A stretch of 6,818 nt of DNA from a virus (taxonomy: Duplodnaviria; Heunggongvirae; Uroviricota; Caudoviricetes). The position numbers and the translations under genes are program-made. The notes under the pieces are model-generated. The model saw only the letters and a program-made list of their open reading frames with translations. It was not told the DNA's origin and made no database searches. Below, piece by piece: positions 1 through 6,818 of this stretch; positions within the stretch are counted from its first letter, which is position 1; each line of letters starts with the position of its first letter. The stretch covers positions 1 through 6,818 of IMG/VR virus record IMGVR_UViG_2579778956_000005, one strand, 5' to 3'.

Positions 1-402
1 ATGGCAACTCTTAAATCAGTGATGGCAATAGCCACCTTAATAATTTCACTCAACGCAAACGCGAATGATATTAAAACCCTTCAAAAGCAGCTTAAACCAT
101 GGCAACCCCTAGAAATCACGAATAAAAACAACTCGCTTACGGTGGTGCTTCCTGGCAAAGAAATCTCTCCTGACGCCTACAACAACCTGATTATGACTGG
201 TGTATGCGCACCAGTCTGGACAAAAGACACGCCTGTTTCATATCTCAAAAAAATCAAAGAAATAAGCATAGTTAATCAATATAAATCCATCGGTTATGTT
301 TTTTCCGAACCATTAAAAACATGCAATGAAATAGGTTCGTTGACGCCTAAACAGGGGCAAGTGTTACTTTCATCCCAAACACGTCTTTACACAGGGAAAT
401 AA
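1..402 (+). CDS. Hypothetical small secreted protein (predicted signal peptide); AT-rich gene flanking the ogr end of the prophage
   Basis: Seen: ORF of 133 aa starting at the ATG at window position 1, TAA at 400-402. The N-terminus MATLKSVMAIATLIISLNANA then NDIK has the shape of a Sec signal peptide with an A-x-A cleavage motif. Two Cys in the mature part. Composition is visibly AT-rich (roughly 38-40% GC by eye) against about 50% in the prophage genes. I do not recognise the family. The window may cut off upstream sequence, so the true start could lie outside the window. Confidence 0.5.
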   Translation: MATLKSVMAIATLIISLNANANDIKTLQKQLKPWQPLEITNKNNSLTVVLPGKEISPDAYNNLIMTGVCAPVWTKDTPVSYLKKIKEISIVNQYKSIGYVFSEPLKTCNEIGSLTPKQGQVLLSSQTRLYTGK

Positions 403-420
403 GCTCCTAAACAAAGTTGA

Positions 421-442
421 AAGCCCCTCGACTGAGGGGCTT
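421..442. terminator. GC-rich hairpin between convergent ORF1 (+) and ogr (-); probable bidirectional intrinsic terminator
   Basis: Seen: aagcccctc (421-429), loop gact, gaggggctt (434-442), a perfect 9-bp stem with a tetraloop. It sits 18 nt after the ORF1 stop and 11 nt after the ogr stop. Flanking sequence is moderately T-rich on both strands (cctgtttg on +, ctttgttt on -), not a clean U-tract. Confidence 0.55.
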
Positions 443-453
443 CCTGTTTGTAA

Positions 454-672
454 TTACATCCACATAATTTGCTGCCCTGACGGCAACGGGTGCGGCCTTA
501 CGGCGTGGACTTCTCCCGGCTTCACGATGTATCGCTGTACCGACTCATAAGTGATGAACGTGGCACTACAATTCACGTTCTGGCACTGATGATAACGCTC
601 TTTTGTCGTGTCAGTGATATAGCGGCTTGTACGCGCATGTGCGGCATGCTGGCATAAAGGACAATGAAACAT
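454..672 (-). CDS. ogr: Ogr, P2 late-gene transcriptional activator (C4 zinc-finger)
   Basis: Seen: translation from the ATG at 672-670 gives MFHCPLCQHAAHARTSRYITDTTKERYHQCQNVNCSATFITYESVQRYIVKPGEVHAVRPHPLPSGQQIMWM, 72 aa, with the CxxC...CxxxxC zinc-binding pattern; this matches my memory of P2 Ogr essentially residue for residue. RBS AAGAGG lies 8 nt upstream. The ORF-track start at 735 is an in-frame upstream extension; an ATG at 708 is a less likely alternative. Confidence 0.9.
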   Translation of the reverse strand: MFHCPLCQHAAHARTSRYITDTTKERYHQCQNVNCSATFITYESVQRYIVKPGEVHAVRPHPLPSGQQIMWM

Positions 673-706
673 CGCGAGCACCTCTTCCGGTTTTGTTGAT
701 GGTGCC

Positions 707-735
707 ATTTTAGTTAAATTATCCTTATAAAACAA
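707..735 (-). promoter_or_regulatory. Putative sigma70-like promoter for ogr (TTGTTT-N17-TAAAAT on the - strand)
   Basis: Seen: on the - strand, TTGTTT (rc of 730-735), a 17-nt spacer, then TAAAAT (rc of 707-712), about 35 nt upstream of the ogr ATG. Established: P2 ogr is thought to have its own promoter in addition to late read-through. Motif-level only. Confidence 0.25.
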
Positions 736-753
736 ACAGATAAAATAAAAACA

Positions 754-1917
754 TCACTCATCATCTTCTGTTTCGTACTCCACATCAGAAAGCCTGACCT
801 CAAGCTCTAAGGACGTCGTGAAGCCGCTATTATTCAGAAAATGTGTCACCTTAGTGATTGTCCAGTCCTGCTCGTCTATGACGCGCTTAAAGCCTGACAC
901 CTTAACCGGTGTTTCCGTGTAAATATCTGCCCGACCGGTAGCCAGGCTGATGGAGAACTCCGCAACGCCCCGTTGCAGTTTATCCCACTTCGCCTGAGCG
1001 GCGCGCATGGCCTGCGCTTTCGTGGCATATACCGTGGTCAGGGCAAAAACATTGTCAGCCTCACCGGCCATGTATTCACCTTCGCGCGCTTCCGGTACTT
1101 TTGGCGCTTTCTTCTGCGTGACCGGTTTCGCTTTCGGGTGCTCCAGTGCGCGCAGGTGTTTCTCTTTCTTTTTGCGTTTCAGTTTTACCTTCTGCTTTTG
1201 TGGCTTCGGGTCTTTGGTGTGTAACCACTTTGCCGTTACGCCGGTGTAGGCTCCACGGTCAGCAATCGCAAAATGATGACGGTCGCCGTCGCTGCGGGTG
1301 ATGGTAATCTGCGGGATTTTTTTACCGCTGGCCGTCACCCCCTGCCCCGCTTTGAGAAACAACAATTTTCCCATTTTTACCGACACCTCACCGCCGTTGC
1401 GTTCAGCAAGGCGGGTCAGGAATTTTGCATCAGACTCCTGCGACTGGTCGATGTGCGGGATTTTAATTCCGGCCAGTGACGGAGCGACACTGGCTTTCAG
1501 CCTGTTACGGGAGGCTATCGCCTCAACAATCGCACCGAGCGTGGTGTCATGCCAGGAGCCTTCACGGCGGGAATTGAGCGTCCCGCGAAAATCTGCACTC
1601 CGGGCGCGGATGGTGACCACATCCGGTGCGCCCCGGTGTTCAACCTCATCAACGGTAAATTTCCCTTTGCATACCAGGGCAAAACCTTTCCAGCCGATAT
1701 ACACCGTCAGGACAGCGCCACGAACCGGCAGCCCGACCTGCCCGTCGGCATCGTTCAGTTCAATATCAAGCTGGTCAGCTTCAAAGCCCCGGTTATCCGT
1801 CAGAGTCATGCTCATCAGACGGTCGCTGATATTGCCGGTAATATCCCTGCTGTCGAGCATCAGCATGTAATCCGGCGTCAGCGTACTGCCTGCATCAAAT
1901 GTCAGCGCATCCAGCAT
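754..1917 (-). CDS. D: Tail protein D (P2 gpD-like), apparently full length
   Basis: Seen: 387-aa ORF with the length and sequence character of P2 gpD, including a Lys-rich linker (KQKVKLKRKKKEK). Its ATG overlaps the U stop as TAATG at 1915-1919, typical translational coupling. Position between U and ogr matches the P2 order U-D-ogr. Confidence 0.85.
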   Translation of the reverse strand: MLDALTFDAGSTLTPDYMLMLDSRDITGNISDRLMSMTLTDNRGFEADQLDIELNDADGQVGLPVRGAVLTVYIGWKGFALVCKGKFTVDEVEHRGAPDVVTIRARSADFRGTLNSRREGSWHDTTLGAIVEAIASRNRLKASVAPSLAGIKIPHIDQSQESDAKFLTRLAERNGGEVSVKMGKLLFLKAGQGVTASGKKIPQITITRSDGDRHHFAIADRGAYTGVTAKWLHTKDPKPQKQKVKLKRKKKEKHLRALEHPKAKPVTQKKAPKVPEAREGEYMAGEADNVFALTTVYATKAQAMRAAQAKWDKLQRGVAEFSISLATGRADIYTETPVKVSGFKRVIDEQDWTITKVTHFLNNSGFTTSLELEVRLSDVEYETEDDE

Positions 1918-2396
1918 TATCCCGCCCCCGTCATACCTGTGAATCTGGTCGCCAGACTGCCGGCCTTACCGATGAGCGACTCCGCCTGTTTACCGATATC
2001 GCCATAAAGCGCGGCCAGTGATTCATCAACGCGGGTGAGCGACAGCGTAAAATCAATTTTCCGGGGTGTGCCGTCTGCAAAGAAAATACTCCCTGTTTCA
2101 CTCACCCTGCTGATGACATACATGCCGTAAATCATGCCAGTGCCATCCAGCAACGGCCACGCCCGGCCTTCATCTGCCATCAGCCTGAGCGTGGTCATCG
2201 TCAGCTTTCCGCCGGTCAGTTCGGGATAAAGCACACCGGCCAGCGTGATGTTTTCCTCACCCACACCGAGAAACTGGTAGGCATCCCGTTTACCGATACG
2301 GGAATTTGACGGCCAGCGATAATCCGATTCACGCTGCATGGTCTGGTGTGGCAGTGTCTGGCGCATAAAAACAAACATACCTAACGCGAGCATCAT
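1917..2396 (-). CDS. U: Tail protein U (P2 gpU-like), apparently full length
   Basis: Seen: 159-aa ORF starting ATGATG at 2396, GGAGG RBS 8 nt upstream (rc of 2403-2407). Length and sequence are consistent with P2 gpU. Sits immediately upstream of D. Confidence 0.85.
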   Translation of the reverse strand: MMLALGMFVFMRQTLPHQTMQRESDYRWPSNSRIGKRDAYQFLGVGEENITLAGVLYPELTGGKLTMTTLRLMADEGRAWPLLDGTGMIYGMYVISRVSETGSIFFADGTPRKIDFTLSLTRVDESLAALYGDIGKQAESLIGKAGSLATRFTGMTGAG

Positions 2397-2413
2397 TTTT
2401 CGTCACCTCCTTA

Positions 2414-2503
2414 ACCGTCATGCATCATGCTGGCACGGGCGCGCGCACGTTTATCCCGCTCGTATTTTTCGAGCGCATCCTGTAACTGGCGGTCAAGCTG
2501 TGT
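2414..2503 (-). pseudogene. T: 3' remnant (about 30 codons) of the tail tape-measure gene T, left by an internal deletion
   Basis: Seen: a short open frame on the - strand, TQLDRQLQDALEKYERDKRARARASMMHDG then stop (TAA at 2413-2411), ending 14 nt before the U start with the U RBS just downstream, which is the arrangement expected for the end of T in P2. The same frame has a TGA at 2506-2504, so it cannot extend further upstream. Inference: this is the C-terminal end of T. I cannot confirm the gpT sequence from memory. Confidence 0.4.
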
Positions 2504-3321
2504 TCACACGATTTAAGAAACTCCAGATTTGCCTGACGGCGCGCACGCACATCACGAATGGCATGTTTACTGGCATAAGGAGAACGGTCTTTATTGACCT
2601 CCCCGACAGCTATCAATAACGCCTCATGCCAGCGCATACGCTGGCCTTTAAGCTGATGAGTCCACCACTCATCGTTAAACAGACGGGCAATGGCAGAATA
2701 TGCCTGCCTCGTGGTCATCTGTCCTTTACGGTATTTTTTCCAGTAAAGCGGGGAAATATTGAAAGCACGTGCAGCGCCAGCAACATGACCATACAGATGC
2801 GCCTGCGCCTCATCCGTAAACAGCGATTCTTTTTCGCCATGCGCATCCACCCAGGCATCGCAGAGTTCCTCATACATCATGAAAAGCTGCGATGAGATAC
2901 GGGCGGCAAACTTTTTCAGCTCCTTGTCATTCATCCCCGGCAGACGCGCATAGTGGTCACGCTCTGTCAGAAACAGCAACGACGCGTCGGTGTTCATTTC
3001 ATGGCGCTGATTCACGCGCTCAATGCGCGGCCATAAACGACGCTGAAAAGTGGATGTGAGGAAATAAAACCCGTGCACCGGGCTTTTATTGCGCCGGATG
3101 TAGTCATAGCGTGAAGTAAACAGCGAGCGCAAAAAGTAAGGCAGGCGGTTAATCGTGGATAAAACACCTTGCACCTGACGCATCTCGTCACGTGTAAGGG
3201 GTCTTTCGCGCCCGACAGCCTCGCGTGGCGCGTTCCATGCATAAGCACCGGTAAACGTCTTACCGGTGCCTGCAGCAAATGCTGACGGATGGACAAAACG
3301 CCCGGAGGCTTTAACGGCCAT
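2425..3321 (-). pseudogene. A: Truncated replication initiation gene A (rolling-circle nickase): N-terminal ~283 codons retained, then a 26-codon out-of-frame tail
   Basis: Seen: from the ATG at 3321-3319 the translation MAVKASGRFVHPSAFAAGTGKTFTGAYAWNAPREAVGRERPLTRDEM...RRQANLEFLKSC matches my recollection of the P2 gpA N-terminus, then continues EHSLTASYRMRSKNTSGINVRAPVPA and stops at 2427-2425. Established: P2 gpA is about 761 aa with the catalytic tyrosines in the central region, which is absent here. The ORF-track start at 3363 is a TTG extension; the ATG at 3321 is preferred although its RBS is weak. Confidence 0.75.
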
Positions 3322-3586
3322 ATGAGCCAAAAGCCTCTGAACAACGCTTGCTGAGTTGCTCAACCTGCGCGTTTAAATCAGCAAAAGACTTTGCGCTTCC
3401 GGTCAGAATATCGTGATGCATCAGGCCGGAAACGAGCTGGCTTAATTTCGGGTAATAACCAACCACCGACAGCCATTCCTGACCGGCGTTTTTACCGCTT
3501 TCAGCTCTCTTTTTCTCGTGGAGAATAAACTGAAAGCTGTCACTGGTAACGACATAATGTTCGCCAATTTCAATACGAATACTCAT
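3311..3586 (-). CDS. Small hypothetical protein, early operon (P2 orf83 position)
   Basis: Seen: 91-aa ORF; its ATG (3586-3584) overlaps the upstream stop as ATGA, and its end overlaps the A start by 11 nt. Fourth of four small ORFs between B and A, matching the P2 orf80-83 arrangement. No recognisable motif. Confidence 0.5.
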   Translation of the reverse strand: MSIRIEIGEHYVVTSDSFQFILHEKKRAESGKNAGQEWLSVVGYYPKLSQLVSGLMHHDILTGSAKSFADLNAQVEQLSKRCSEAFGSYGR

Positions 3587-3807
3587 GCTGTTCTCCGGTA
3601 ATGTTTGTTTTTTGCTTCAAAGACTGACTGACAGGAAACACAACGCGTGGCTGACGGATAAGCCGCACGACGTGCAGCAGGTATTGGCGCGTCACACTCT
3701 TCGCAAACCAGCGCAGAAGCACCGTAATGTTTTACCCTTGCCGCGTTAATCTGGCGCTCCAGTAATTCAGCATGTTGTTCCTGAATAAAATCTACGTTGT
3801 CCGGCAT
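3583..3807 (-). CDS. TraR/DksA-family C4 zinc-finger protein (P2 orf82 position)
   Basis: Seen: 74 aa, MPDNVDFIQEQHAELLERQ...CEECDAPIPAARRAAYPSATRCVSCQ, with CxxC-N18-CxxC as in phage TraR/DksA-like zinc fingers. AGGAG RBS 6 nt upstream of the ATG at 3807. Confidence 0.75.
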   Translation of the reverse strand: MPDNVDFIQEQHAELLERQINAARVKHYGASALVCEECDAPIPAARRAAYPSATRCVSCQSVFEAKNKHYRRTA

Positions 3808-3809
3808 TA

Positions 3810-4109
3810 TCAGCTCCTTTTATCGTTAAGTTTCCTGGATACATCAGCGCAATAACTGGCAAGTTCTGTCGTTAATTTTGTCAGTTCATCCACTGAGGAA
3901 ATTTGCTTGTGGAATACAGCGCGTTTCACAAGTAAATTGACCACATCAGACAGGAGGTTTAATTCATTCTGATAAATCGCGATAACAGATTCAGTTATGT
4001 CGCGTTTTTCTTTATCAAGACAAAGTTGAATAAGAGACAAATCACCATTTTCCATAACGGCGATTTTTAAGGCGTTATTCAGTAATACAACTGAATGAGA
4101 ACAGGCCAT
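3810..4109 (-). CDS. AT-rich small hypothetical protein, early operon (P2 orf81 position); possible moron
   Basis: Seen: 99 aa from the ATG at 4109-4107, which overlaps the upstream stop as TGATG, with a GGAGG RBS 7 nt upstream. The ORF-track first codon at 4112 is TTG. Composition is markedly more AT-rich (about 37% GC by eye) than both flanking ORFs. No recognisable motif; charged and probably helical. Confidence 0.5.
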   Translation of the reverse strand: MACSHSVVLLNNALKIAVMENGDLSLIQLCLDKEKRDITESVIAIYQNELNLLSDVVNLLVKRAVFHKQISSVDELTKLTTELASYCADVSRKLNDKRS

Positions 4110-4333
4110 CAAAGTACCTCCCCGCGAGACAATCCGATATTGTGAAATTTTTCCGACTCCTGACTGAGCAAATCGACTATCTCTACGCGGGATAACTCCG
4201 CCTTTGTGATGTGGCGAATCATGGCGTCAAGATGAGAAGAAAAGCGCGTCGCTGCGTCGGCCTGTGCTTCGGTTCTGGCCTGTTGCAGCAGTAATGCGTA
4301 TTTACCGCACTGATTTTCAGAAACTGTATGCAT
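4109..4333 (-). CDS. Small hypothetical protein, early operon (P2 orf80 position)
   Basis: Seen: 74 aa from the ATG at 4333-4331 ([18 protein letters not shown]...), with a GGAG RBS about 7 nt upstream. The ORF-track start at 4366 is a TTG with no RBS. Confidence 0.5.
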
Positions 4334-4396
4334 GACTTTCTCCAGGCAAAAAGAAGCCCCGCACAATTAAGTGCGTTAAAAACTCTGGTTAATTAC

Positions 4397-4903
4397 TTAA
4401 TGCAGATATTGCTCTGGTTTTACCGACGTCAGAATTGTCGGTGCATACTCAAACAGACTGAATAATTCACGTAACGCACGGAATAAAGCATCACGCCAGT
4501 AACATGATTCCTCATTAATTCGCCAGTATGGCTGGTTAAATTCTTTTTCTGTCAGTCGTGCGTGCATAAATAAAGTGCGACGCTGACTGACTGTTAAAAA
4601 ACTAATATATGCATACTCACTTGCGCCAACCTGACGGCGTTTTGAGAATGCCCCACGCAGTTCATCAATTGCACAAACCAGCCGTTCACGTTCGACGTCA
4701 TTCATTTCTTCAAAACGCATCGTTGCGTGACGCTGTTTTAACTGCGCATGAAAGCAAACCGTTAGCCGTTCGCGTTCCATCATCTGATTATAATAATCAC
4801 ATGTCTCCTGCCAGCGAGGGACGGCCAGATGCTTACCAATTATCCGGCGCATAGTTGCTGGCTGTTTTTCAACGAGATTGAGCGTCATCACTGTCATTTC
4901 CAT
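4397..4903 (-). CDS. B: Probable replication protein B (P2 gpB-like)
   Basis: Seen: 168-aa ORF; GGAGGG lies immediately upstream, and an in-frame ATG at 4897 has better RBS spacing and forms an ATGA overlap with the upstream stop. Established: P2 has a ~166-aa B gene between cox/orf78 and orf80-83. Inference: identity rests on size and position; I cannot recall the P2 B sequence to confirm. Confidence 0.6.
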   Translation of the reverse strand: MEMTVMTLNLVEKQPATMRRIIGKHLAVPRWQETCDYYNQMMERERLTVCFHAQLKQRHATMRFEEMNDVERERLVCAIDELRGAFSKRRQVGASEYAYISFLTVSQRRTLFMHARLTEKEFNQPYWRINEESCYWRDALFRALRELFSLFEYAPTILTSVKPEQYLH

Positions 4904-5091
4904 ACCCTCCGGCTTTTCAGAAAGGTCAGAGCCTTTTTTAACGGACTCTGTTTTTTGGTGCGGATAATGATTCCCTTGCGTCCCTTCCCGTGGGTGATGG
5001 TGAAGTCAATCGCCCTGGGGCTTTCGTTACGCAGTAACTGAGCAATACAACGCGGCTCATTCATAATCACAACCCCATCCACAAAAGCCAT
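4894..5091 (-). CDS. Small hypothetical protein between cox and B (P2 orf78 position)
   Basis: Seen: 65-aa ORF from the ATG at 5091, which would overlap the cox 3' end by 25 nt. An in-frame ATG at 5064 (56 aa, MNEPRCIAQLL...) starts 2 nt after the cox stop and has a purine-rich stretch upstream. The start is uncertain. Confidence 0.4.
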   Translation of the reverse strand: MAFVDGVVIMNEPRCIAQLLRNESPRAIDFTITHGKGRKGIIIRTKKQSPLKKALTFLKSRRVWK

Positions 5092-5339
5092 GCATCACGC
5101 TGTTCAACCGGTCGGTTATAAAACGCCTCACGTACAGCGCGATTAAACTCTGGAATGAAAACCCATTTCTCACCGGCGCGGGCCTTCGGCTTATTTGGAT
5201 CTCGAAGCTCGATAACCGGTAGCTTGTTAGCCTTTATCATTTCTGTAACTGCGGTTTTTGGTTTACCCAATAAATCTGCAAACTTTTCCGCATGTACCGC
5301 ATCAAGCGGGTACTTAATCACATAATCATTAACTTCCAT
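5067..5339 (-). CDS. cox: Cox-like excisionase / early repressor of the lysogenic promoter (P2 Cox family)
   Basis: Seen: 90 aa, MEVNDYVIKYPLDAVHAEKFADLLGKPKTAVTEMIKANKLPVIELRDP...RAGEKWVFIPEFN...RPVEQRDAWLLWMGL, with the KLPVI, RAGE-WV and RD-WL-WMGL features I associate with P2/WPhi/HP1 Cox. GAGGG RBS about 9 nt upstream of the ATG at 5339. First gene of the leftward operon, divergent from C. Confidence 0.8.
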   Translation of the reverse strand: MEVNDYVIKYPLDAVHAEKFADLLGKPKTAVTEMIKANKLPVIELRDPNKPKARAGEKWVFIPEFNRAVREAFYNRPVEQRDAWLLWMGL

Positions 5340-5474
5340 CTATGTTACCCTCATAGGATCCAGCCCCTTAAAAACCGCTTGGAACCGTTTAAGCGGCGCT
5401 GGACTCACGCCCGAAAAGGTTCTGGATTAATGACCTTTTCGGGGAATATAGTCATTAAGTCAGGACTATGTCAA
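5340..5474. promoter_or_regulatory. C/cox intergenic switch region with candidate operator repeats
   Basis: Seen: a 135-bp region between divergent cox and C. Perfect 11-bp inverted repeat cccgaaaaggt (5410-5420) / accttttcggg (5433-5443) with a 12-bp spacer. 8-bp inverted repeat ttaatgac (5427-5434) / gtcattaa (5451-5458) flanking the Pe -10. Near-direct repeat aaccgctt (5373-5380) / aaccgttt (5383-5390). Which of these are C or Cox sites cannot be told from sequence alone. Confidence 0.55.
5445..5474 (-). promoter_or_regulatory. Candidate early promoter Pe for the cox operon: TTGACA-N18-TATATT on the - strand
   Basis: Seen: on the - strand a perfect -35 TTGACA (rc of 5469-5474, abutting the C start codon), an 18-nt spacer, and -10 TATATT (rc of 5445-5450). 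The predicted start near 5437 gives a roughly 100-nt leader before cox. Established: P2 and 186 place the lytic and lysogenic promoters face to face, so the lytic promoter lies next to the repressor gene. Confidence 0.5.
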
Positions 5475-5837: not shown

Positions 5838-6818
5838 ATGGCAATTAAGAAGCTCGATGATGGTCGCTATGAAGTGGACATTAGACCTCGCGGTCGCGAC
5901 GGAAAACGCATCCGCAGGAAATTTGAAAGAAAAGCTGAAGCACTAGCATTTGAGCGATACACAATCGCCAATGCCAGTCAGAAAGAATGGGGAGGCCAGC
6001 GAGCAGACCGCCGAACTTTGACAGAATTGCTCGACATCTGGTGGAAATACCACGGGCAAAACCACGAGCATGGGACAAAAGAGTTTAATCATCTGCTCAA
6101 AACCATCAGCGGCATAGGTGATATACCAGTGAGCCGGATGAACAAAAGGGCTTTGATGGATTATCGCTCCATGCGACTACGTGATGGCATCAGTGCTGCA
6201 ACGATAAACCGCGACATGTACCGATTATCCGGCATGTTCACAAAATTAATTCAATTGGATGAATTTTCCGGGCAACACCCAATTCACGGACTGCCGCCAC
6301 TGACGGAGGCTAACCCTGAAATGACGTTCCTGGAAAAAGCAGAAATCGAAAAACTGCTAAATGTTTTGACTGGTGATGACTTACTTGTCGCGCTTTTATG
6401 TCTGAGCACTGGAGGAAGATGGACGGAAGTTGCCACGCTAAAACCAGCACAGATTACAAGTTGCAGGGTTACCTTCCTGAAAACCAAAAACGGTAAAAAG
6501 CGAACAGTGCCGATTTCTGAGGAACTGGAGAAAAAAGTTAAAGAGGAGGCCAGCGCCAAATTGTTCAAGGTAGATTATGAGAAGTTTTGCGGGATTTTAC
6601 GCAGAGTGAAACCTGATATACCTCCCAATCAGGCAACCCACATTCTGCGGCATACATTCGCAAGCCATTTCATGATGAATGGGGGCAACATAATTGCACT
6701 GCAACAGATTCTGGGGCATGCGAGCATTCAGCAGACAATGACCTATGCGCACCTTGCGCCTGACTACCTGCAGAACGCCGTCGCTCTGAATCCACTAAAA
6801 GGCGGAGTGACGTTATAA
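5838..6818 (+). CDS. int: Tyrosine integrase (P2 Int family)
   Basis: Seen: 326 aa from the ATG at 5838 (MAIKKLDDGRYEVDIRPRGRDGKRIRRKF...) with GGAGGG 8 nt upstream. The C-terminal catalytic region has conserved Arg (LSTGGRWTE), an H-x-L-R-H box (THILRHTFASHF) and the catalytic Tyr (QTMTYAHL). The stop TAA is the last three bases of the window. It follows C in the same orientation, as in P2. Confidence 0.9.
   Translation: MAIKKLDDGRYEVDIRPRGRDGKRIRRKFERKAEALAFERYTIANASQKEWGGQRADRRTLTELLDIWWKYHGQNHEHGTKEFNHLLKTISGIGDIPVSRMNKRALMDYRSMRLRDGISAATINRDMYRLSGMFTKLIQLDEFSGQHPIHGLPPLTEANPEMTFLEKAEIEKLLNVLTGDDLLVALLCLSTGGRWTEVATLKPAQITSCRVTFLKTKNGKKRTVPISEELEKKVKEEASAKLFKVDYEKFCGILRRVKPDIPPNQATHILRHTFASHFMMNGGNIIALQQILGHASIQQTMTYAHLAPDYLQNAVALNPLKGGVTL

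Follow-up and report, generated by a model that had tools for sequence, protein, structure and literature searches.

A defective P2-like prophage at cpxP-fieF of Escherichia coli in which replication gene A runs into the end of tail gene T

How does the replication gene of a P2-like phage come to end within the last codons of a tail gene, and what could an element built in this way still do? The question is raised by the window, by which we mean the whole stretch of 6,818 bases that was analysed. It consists of two arms of a P2-like (Peduovirus) prophage that are joined on the minus strand, and its features are collected in Table 1. We conclude that the element is very probably a defective P2-like prophage at cpxP-fieF, which suffered one illegitimate deletion reaching from codon 273 of A to the 31st-from-last codon of T.

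The two arms and their chromosomal site

Table 1. Features of the window in order of position, with the strand and the evidence on which each assignment rests.
Feature	Position	Strand	Evidence and remarks
Cargo ORF orf133, 133 aa	1-402	+	ORF list; between ogr and attR; signal-peptide-like N-terminus
Hairpin terminator 3' of ogr	419-444	-	Terminator scan; 11-pair stem
ogr, late-gene activator, 72 aa, full length	454-672	-	PF04606 Ogr_Delta; length as ogrK of the 50EVAW prophage
Tail gene D, 387 aa, full length	754-1917	-	PF05954 Phage_GPD, E = 1.6e-26; 97.5% nucleotide identity to P2
Tail gene U, 159 aa, full length	1917-2396	-	PF06995 Phage_P2_GpU, E = 3.6e-44
Native 14-nt T-U spacer with U ribosome-binding site (GGAGG)	2397-2410	-	Sequence
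Tape-measure gene T, 3' end (last 30 codons and stop)	2411-2505	-	Without own start codon or promoter
Chimeric ORF A', 298 aa	2425-3321	-	gpA 1-272 plus 26 residues read out of frame from the T remnant
Deletion junction, TC on the plus strand (GA in phage orientation)	2504-2505		Three-way alignments
orf83-like, DUF5405, full length	3311-3586	-	Pfam gene calls
TraR/DksA zinc finger (zf-dskA_traR), full length	3583-3807	-	Pfam gene calls
orf81-like, full length	3810-4109	-	Gene call
DUF2732, full length	4109-4333	-	Pfam gene calls
B (Phage_RepB), full length	4397-4897	-	Pfam gene calls
orf78-like, longest ORF	4894-5091	-	phrog_273 over residues 10-65
cox (Phage_Cox), 90 aa, full length	5067-5339	-	Pfam gene calls
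Predicted early promoter Pe, TTGACA-18-TATATT	5445-5474	-	Promoter scan, 11/12; consensus match
Immunity repressor C, 97 aa	5475-5768	+	phrog_147, E = 7e-40; gene call
Integrase int, 326 aa, full length	5838-6818	+	PF24624, PF00589; length as in 50EVAW

Comparison with P2 (NC_001895) by blastn divided most of the window into two colinear blocks. Window 420-2503 corresponds to P2 24288-22205 (97.5%, E = 0) and window 2504-5065 to P2 28851-26290 (96.3%, E = 0); in P2, positions 28034-28851 are the 5' third of A, while positions 22205-22297 are the 3' end of T. The homology starts, at window 420, in the hairpin behind ogr, and P2 has its ogr/F-operon terminator annotated at the equivalent position, 24265-24288. 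The Pfam order recorded for the early arm is Phage_Cox, Phage_RepB, DUF2732, DUF5405, zf-dskA_traR and Phage_GPA, and the position of the Pe-like site between C and cox agrees with that of Pe in P2. Beyond window 5065 the C/int region has weak or no homology to P2 and is 96.8% identical to Yersinia phage P37. The immunity type of C differs from that of P2 and is common to P37.

The closest intact counterparts are P2-like prophages at cpxP-fieF, represented here by the prophage of strain 50EVAW together with P37. On either side of the join, their genes have the order and orientation seen in the window, with nucleotide identities of 96-98.6%, and both share the immunity (C) type of the window; P37 additionally shares the integrase/att type and the 47-nt att core. 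The 50EVAW prophage, of about 29.6 kb, is intact, lies at the same site and has the same immunity/int type. The lengths of Int (326 aa), C (97 aa), Cox (90 aa) and Ogr (72 aa) equal those found there; indeed, every remaining gene other than A (and T) has the length of its 50EVAW counterpart. The cargo gene orf133 matches phrog_3807 (unknown function, E = 2.7e-56) and gave no match in the Pfam scan. The slot that it occupies is likewise filled in P37.

The element resides on the 28.7-kb E. coli draft contig AYKE01000042 (GCA_000511565.1), where the window is 100% identical to positions 169-6986 of the contig segment that was read. At its full 7.1 kb, the remnant sits between cpxP and fieF-pfkA-sbp-cdh-tpiA. 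It is framed by a perfect 47-nt direct repeat, GACACCATCCCTGTCTTCCCCCACATGATGTGGGGGTTTTTTTTATC, at positions 7-53 and 7149-7195 of the contig segment, 7,142 bp apart, and an Int arm-type repeat, TGTGGACxCTATGTGGACA, accompanies the 47-nt repeat on each side. Strain 13TMH22, whose cpxP-fieF site is empty, has a single copy of the 47-mer there, and phage P37 likewise has one. Because the sequence is duplicated here and single in these two, the copies represent attL and attR in the remnant, attB in the empty site and attP in the phage. The copy that forms attL (7-53) lies outside the window.

Over 7.4 kb, the neighbouring chromosomal DNA has 100% identity to many E. coli genomes, and for this reason we assign the host to E. 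coli. Among strains with identical flanks, 13TMH22 carries the empty site and AMSCJX02 the right end of a P2-like prophage (T-U-D-ogr). Together with the intact prophage of 50EVAW, these strains provide the comparison of the locus in related strains that had been proposed when the window was first described.

The junction and the missing interval

Starting with the ATG at 3321 (minus strand), the A frame agrees with P2 gpA in 266 of 272 residues, up to ...NLEFLKSC, and the Cys codon that closes this match occupies window 2506-2508. The 26 codons that follow, EHSLTASYRMRSKNTSGINVRAPVPA, have 0/26 identity to gpA and run to a stop at 2425-2427. A second frame, over 2411-2503, reads TQLDRQLQDALEKYERDKRARARASMMHDG followed by a stop, and its residues are the C-terminus of gpT without exception (30/30). 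This T frame is shut upstream by the TGA at 2504-2506. Its own stop (2411-2413) lies 14 nt before the start codon of U (2394-2396), with the same spacing as in P2, where the identical 14-nt T-U gap is found at 22298-22311.

The position of the break was obtained from the alignments. When the whole window was compared with complete E. coli genomes, all A-side matches among the best 40 of 2,167 records started at 2504. On the T side, the matches listed for the query 2300-2700 stopped at 2505 or ran, with mismatches, to 2508. This puts the breakpoint at 2503|2504 relative to P2, with an ambiguity over 2504-2505 relative to a T allele of the KL53 type. The KL53 prophage is 100% identical to window 2300-2505, and the part matching 2411-2505 is annotated there as tape measure. 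In STEC309 this stretch of T is likewise annotated as tape measure.

The choice of the parental T allele decides how the join is described. With a KL53-type T allele as the parent, the two ends share a microhomology of 2 nt (GA), and with P2 itself of 0 nt; the microhomology hence depends on the allele, and it is too short to tell mechanisms apart. The join is blunt when P2 or the 50EVAW prophage is taken for comparison. An alternative description, a 1-nt insertion at the join with an offset GAC on both sides relative to P2 and 50EVAW, was dropped, given that the KL53/STEC309 T allele accounts for the join by a simple GA overlap. We prefer this 2-nt overlap because that allele is 100% identical on the T side. 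The junction alignments contain no insertion at the break and a shared sequence of 0-2 nt only. No insertion sequence or long repeat is present at the break, and no repeat family spans it in the 14.5-kb contig segment.

These results confirm the preliminary description, which had been made from the letters of the window, apart from a small change in extent. It had read the A frame as matching gpA up to LEFLKSC before 26 unrelated codons, and the other frame as the C-terminus of T, ending 14 nt upstream of U and closed by the stop at 2504-2506; both readings are borne out by the protein comparisons. The single breakpoint that it placed at roughly 2500-2510 is found, with the two P2 blocks meeting at 2503/2504 inside this bracket, and the clean break expected near 2505 is seen in the concordant match boundaries of blastn against P2 and against E. 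coli. The homology to the start of A, given as 2506-3321, runs from 2504 in the blastn comparison with P2. For the end of T the identity was correct, while the extent has to be changed from 2425-2503 to 2411-2505. The microhomology for which it had suggested looking amounts to the GA described above if the parent had a KL53-type T allele, and to nothing if it had that of P2.

The interval between the two ends corresponds to 26,946 bp in P2 (28852-33593 plus 1-22204) and to 22,217 bp in the 50EVAW prophage, where the points that are adjacent in the remnant lie this far apart. In the P2 record it contains the ori nick site (29892, inside A), orf91, tin, old and cos; the genes Q, P, O, N, M, L and X and the lysis genes; R, S, V, W, J, I, H, G, fun(Z), FI, FII and E/E'; and all of T except its end. 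In the 14.5 kb that were read of the source contig, nothing matched P2 28852-33593 plus 1-22204. The same 14.5 kb are without the 40-mer around the P2 ori nick site, and the P2 cos 19-mer is absent from both the window and the contig segment at up to 3 mismatches. The earlier statement that the interval holds ori, tin/old, cos and the head, lysis and tail genes is therefore right for P2, while the cargo of the actual parent may have been tin/old or other genes. Cargo varies among P2-like relatives.

Intact relatives measure about 30-33 kb. Compared with them, the 7.1-kb remnant is without everything from codon 273 of A to codon -31 of T, including the Q-P-O-N-M-L head genes and the baseplate, fibre, sheath and tube genes. 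By synteny, sequence identity and att structure it belongs to the P2-like prophages. Because the set of functions of a viable phage (head, lysis, tail, cos, ori) is incomplete, we file it as a defective derivative and not as a phage.

The junction itself is rare. In a set of about 15 billion proteins, a sequence identical to A' is recorded on one contig only, AYKE01000042. Megablast searches of 5,426 complete E. coli genomes, with 2300-2700 and with the whole window as queries, yielded no case of the junction among the matches listed (for the whole window the best 40 of 2,167 records), and a megablast search with 2400-2610 gave 0 of 50,697 phage records. The junction 30-mer was not found in viral contigs or in GTDB species genomes, nor was the junction 20-mer when the GTDB species genomes were rescanned. 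A natural A-U adjacency, the arrangement that had been named as speaking against a deletion, thus occurs in none of the phage, viral, GTDB or complete E. coli data searched. Two metagenome matches to a 22-mer were set aside, as those 22 bases are all that they have in common with the window; they are chance matches in unrelated DNA. Phage records that appeared to be 98% covered in one place were rejected as well, since the pieces had been joined regardless of their order and do not form this arrangement. Blastn against P2 and P37 gives a circular permutation, because ogr, attP and int adjoin in the phage genome.

Origin of the junction

We propose that a single, homology-independent deletion of about 22 kb, measured on the nearest intact relative, or of 26.9 kb, measured on P2, would have given rise to the remnant. 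Such an event would leave the order attL-int-C-Pe-cox-orf78-B-orf80-83-A'/'T-U-D-ogr-orf133-attR. In E. coli, illegitimate deletions arise by end-joining and by topoisomerase-type recombination. The junction would fit one of these routes, and not homologous or site-specific recombination, because the ends share at most 2 nt (GA). Further decay is not visible, which suggests that the deletion may be recent; selection is the alternative.

Several events could have produced the same structure, either as nested deletions or through recombination between two co-resident or tandem P2-like prophages. Identity to 50EVAW is slightly higher on the A side (98.6%) than on the T side (97.3%), P2-like phages are mosaic, and many genomes hold several of them, with up to 8 matching places per genome. 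However, the difference in identity falls inside normal mosaicism, there is only one novel junction, and both flanks line up with a single prophage at a single att site. Moreover, P37 combines this immunity/int type with the orf133 cargo in one phage. We regard more than one event as unlikely: a single event is the most parsimonious explanation, though nested deletions or a deletion between tandem prophages would give the same junction.

Could the strain instead carry an intact prophage, with A and T misjoined during assembly or by a chimeric read? The junction and the exact A' are found in one draft contig and are absent, among the matches listed, from the 5,426 complete E. coli genomes, and this contig terminates right at attL, 6 nt outside it. 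Against this, assemblers join sequences via long shared words, whereas the two sides here have at most 2 nt in common. The contig is colinear with P2-like prophages on both sides of the join and continues via attR into the chromosome, where the flank is 100% identical over 7.4 kb. In addition, no piece of the deleted interval is present in the 14.5 kb of the contig that were read. We therefore consider a sequencing or assembly artefact very unlikely.

It is hardly credible that the locus is a natural short-A mini-element or satellite, in which A' would be functional and A-U the normal order. The retained ORFs and both att sites are intact, as they would be in such an element, and phrog_12979 (189 positions) does consist of stand-alone N-terminal fragments of gpA. 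This family probably reflects annotations that split A into two ORFs, as in HQ103 ('replication protein x2'). None of the phage records, viral contigs, GTDB representatives and complete E. coli genomes searched showed the adjacency, the break cuts Phage_GPA at profile position 137 of 321, and the tail of A' is T read out of frame. Because cos and ori are absent, the element is also not a satellite packaged by a helper. A P4-like, helper-dependent satellite was rejected, with no cos 19-mer (at up to 3 mismatches), no homology to the P2 cos region and no ori; the gene calls on the contig include no primase-like gene. A tailocin was rejected too, as only U and D are left and nothing in the 14.5 kb read is homologous to FI, FII, V, W, J, I, H, G or the lysis genes.

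Retained functions and relation to other defective prophages

The single deletion that we favour has direct consequences for replication. In the Pfam comparison, A' covers only positions 1-137 of the 321 positions of the Phage_GPA profile. The HUH motif of gpA (PHWHM, residues 399-401) and the sequence GYIAKY (449-454) lie beyond the break and are missing, and A' is without the nicking domain of gpA (HUH motif, Tyr450/454). Annotators should label the 298-aa 'replication endonuclease' as a pseudogene or a fusion, and the element as a defective and not an intact prophage.

The element has no terminase, capsid or lysis genes, and of the tail genes U and D are left, plus the end of T. From the biology of P2 we infer that the remnant should be unable to replicate, because there is neither an ori nor a catalytic gpA, and unable to be packaged, because cos and the terminase are gone. 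By the same reasoning it should be unable to lyse the cell, to build particles or to help a satellite.

Other functions look intact, as the preliminary description had already noted for immunity, integration and Ogr: the genes have the lengths found in 50EVAW and both att copies are perfect. The intact ORFs and sites suggest that C, expressed from Pc, should still confer immunity to homoimmune phages. Excision by Int and Cox should persist as well, given the intact ORFs and both att sites, and it would cure the cell of the element, because the excised circle would have no origin. Expression of Ogr should likewise persist, its ORF being intact. The remnant is thereby a clean example of one-step 'grounding', in which replication, packaging, lysis and most structural genes are lost while immunity, integration and att are kept.

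The fusion may also have changed how the tail genes are transcribed. A', the T remnant, U, D and ogr lie downstream of the early operon in the same orientation; the terminator scan gave no terminator-like site between A' and U and one terminator after B, at 4375-4360. If Pe were derepressed, U, D and ogr would probably join the transcription of the early operon, because of the common orientation and the lack of a terminator between A' and U, and this read-through would replace the lost late promoter pF. The gene ogr retains its own upstream region.

One may speculate that the 7.1-kb mini-prophage is kept because it is useful, be it as an immunity module (C, maybe with orf133), as a reservoir for recombination or as an early source of Ogr. 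As a reservoir, it could supply superinfecting P2-like phages with a new immunity/integrase arm, much as the defective prophage of E. coli B did for P2 Hy dis. As a source of Ogr, it could upon derepression, for example by a P4-type antirepressor, trans-activate late or satellite promoters of co-resident elements. We consider such a role rather doubtful. Defective prophages with internal deletions are textbook knowledge, and what is new here is the particular allele alone, so that the finding has little importance beyond annotation.

Related remnants are known from other strains of E. coli. In 1992 Barreiro and Haggard-Ljungquist reportedly described a cryptic P2 remnant in E. coli K-12, with ogrK and a fragment of gpD beside att. 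As in our case, the right end of a P2-family phage (D/ogr/att) was kept there after most of the phage had been lost. From the K-12 remnant the left arm (int, C, cox, B, A) is reportedly missing, and its D is truncated, whereas the element described here still has its two arms, its two att sites and D and U at full length, the loss being one internal deletion. E. coli B carries a defective P2-related prophage from which P2 Hy dis received its immunity region. It is, like the present element, of a non-plaque-forming P2 type with a non-P2 immunity region, which could in principle be rescued by recombination; its lesion is different from that of our remnant. P2 Hy dis itself has been treated as a heteroimmune relative of P2 (PMC1904268).

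A 2026 survey in NAR of defence hotspots in P2 and P4 described regions with P2 core markers as 'very likely defective versions' of P2, and found the replication gene ('the primase of P4 and P2') to be pseudogenised more often than other core genes (PMC13586616). In our remnant, too, the replication gene is the broken one. The regions of the survey were found via the defence cargo that they had kept, whereas the remnant has lost the region from A to cos, which holds tin and old in P2, together with the fun(Z) region, and its cargo amounts to one small ORF, orf133.

The predicted early promoter and its putative operator

The -10 element of the predicted early promoter Pe is flanked by an inverted pair, TTAATGAC / GTCATTAA, while direct repeats are the known binding target of the P2 immunity repressor C, according to PMC2995052. 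The immunity type of this prophage, which is common to Yersinia phage P37 and the intact P2-like prophage of E. coli 50EVAW, may therefore have an operator layout different from that of P2.

Positions of the annotated features in the window
Feature	Position	Strand	Remark
133-aa ORF	1-402	+	ogr-attR cargo slot; signal-peptide-like N-terminus MATLKSVMAIATLIISLNANA
gpA residues 1-197	2731-3321		region matched by phrog_12979
Predicted Pe, -35	5469-5474	minus	
Predicted Pe, -10	5445-5450	minus	
Inverted pair	5427-5458		flanks the predicted Pe -10

Gene A and the deletion junction

In the PHROG search, phrog_12979 (189 positions, "unknown function") matched the N-terminus of gpA, the product of replication gene A, end to end with E = 5e-109. 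From this coverage, A seems to be divided into two ORFs in some phage annotations, for example in Yersinia phage HQ103 ("replication protein x2"). Between A and its neighbour, the orf83 homologue, P37 has an additional gene of the phosphoadenosine-phosphosulfate reductase family (L002 3821-4828), and so do some E. coli prophages (strains GN04592, C10 and C11); the window lacks this gene at the equivalent position (~3290-3352).

The exact junction 22-mer, AAGCTGTGTTCACACGATTTAA, was found by a metagenome 22-mer scan in two contigs, Ga0075421_100089626 (L007 142-163) and Ga0209382_10137170 (L008 1528-1549), which are 99.9% identical to each other across 1,688 bp. Neither shares any sequence with the window besides the 22-mer itself; they are chance matches, demonstrating that 22-mer scans of this metagenome collection yield such hits.

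The cargo slot and the attachment sites

The 133-aa ORF gave no match in Pfam, while the PHROG search returned an end-to-end match to phrog_3807, labelled unknown function. The slot between ogr and attR is also filled in P37, whereas in the 50EVAW prophage it holds a different gene of 213 aa.

The source contig AYKE01000042 crosses attR without interruption. At its end with the identical 47 nt of attL (L003 1-53, past int and outside the window), the same contig terminates 6 nt beyond the repeat, within the cpxP terminator hairpin.
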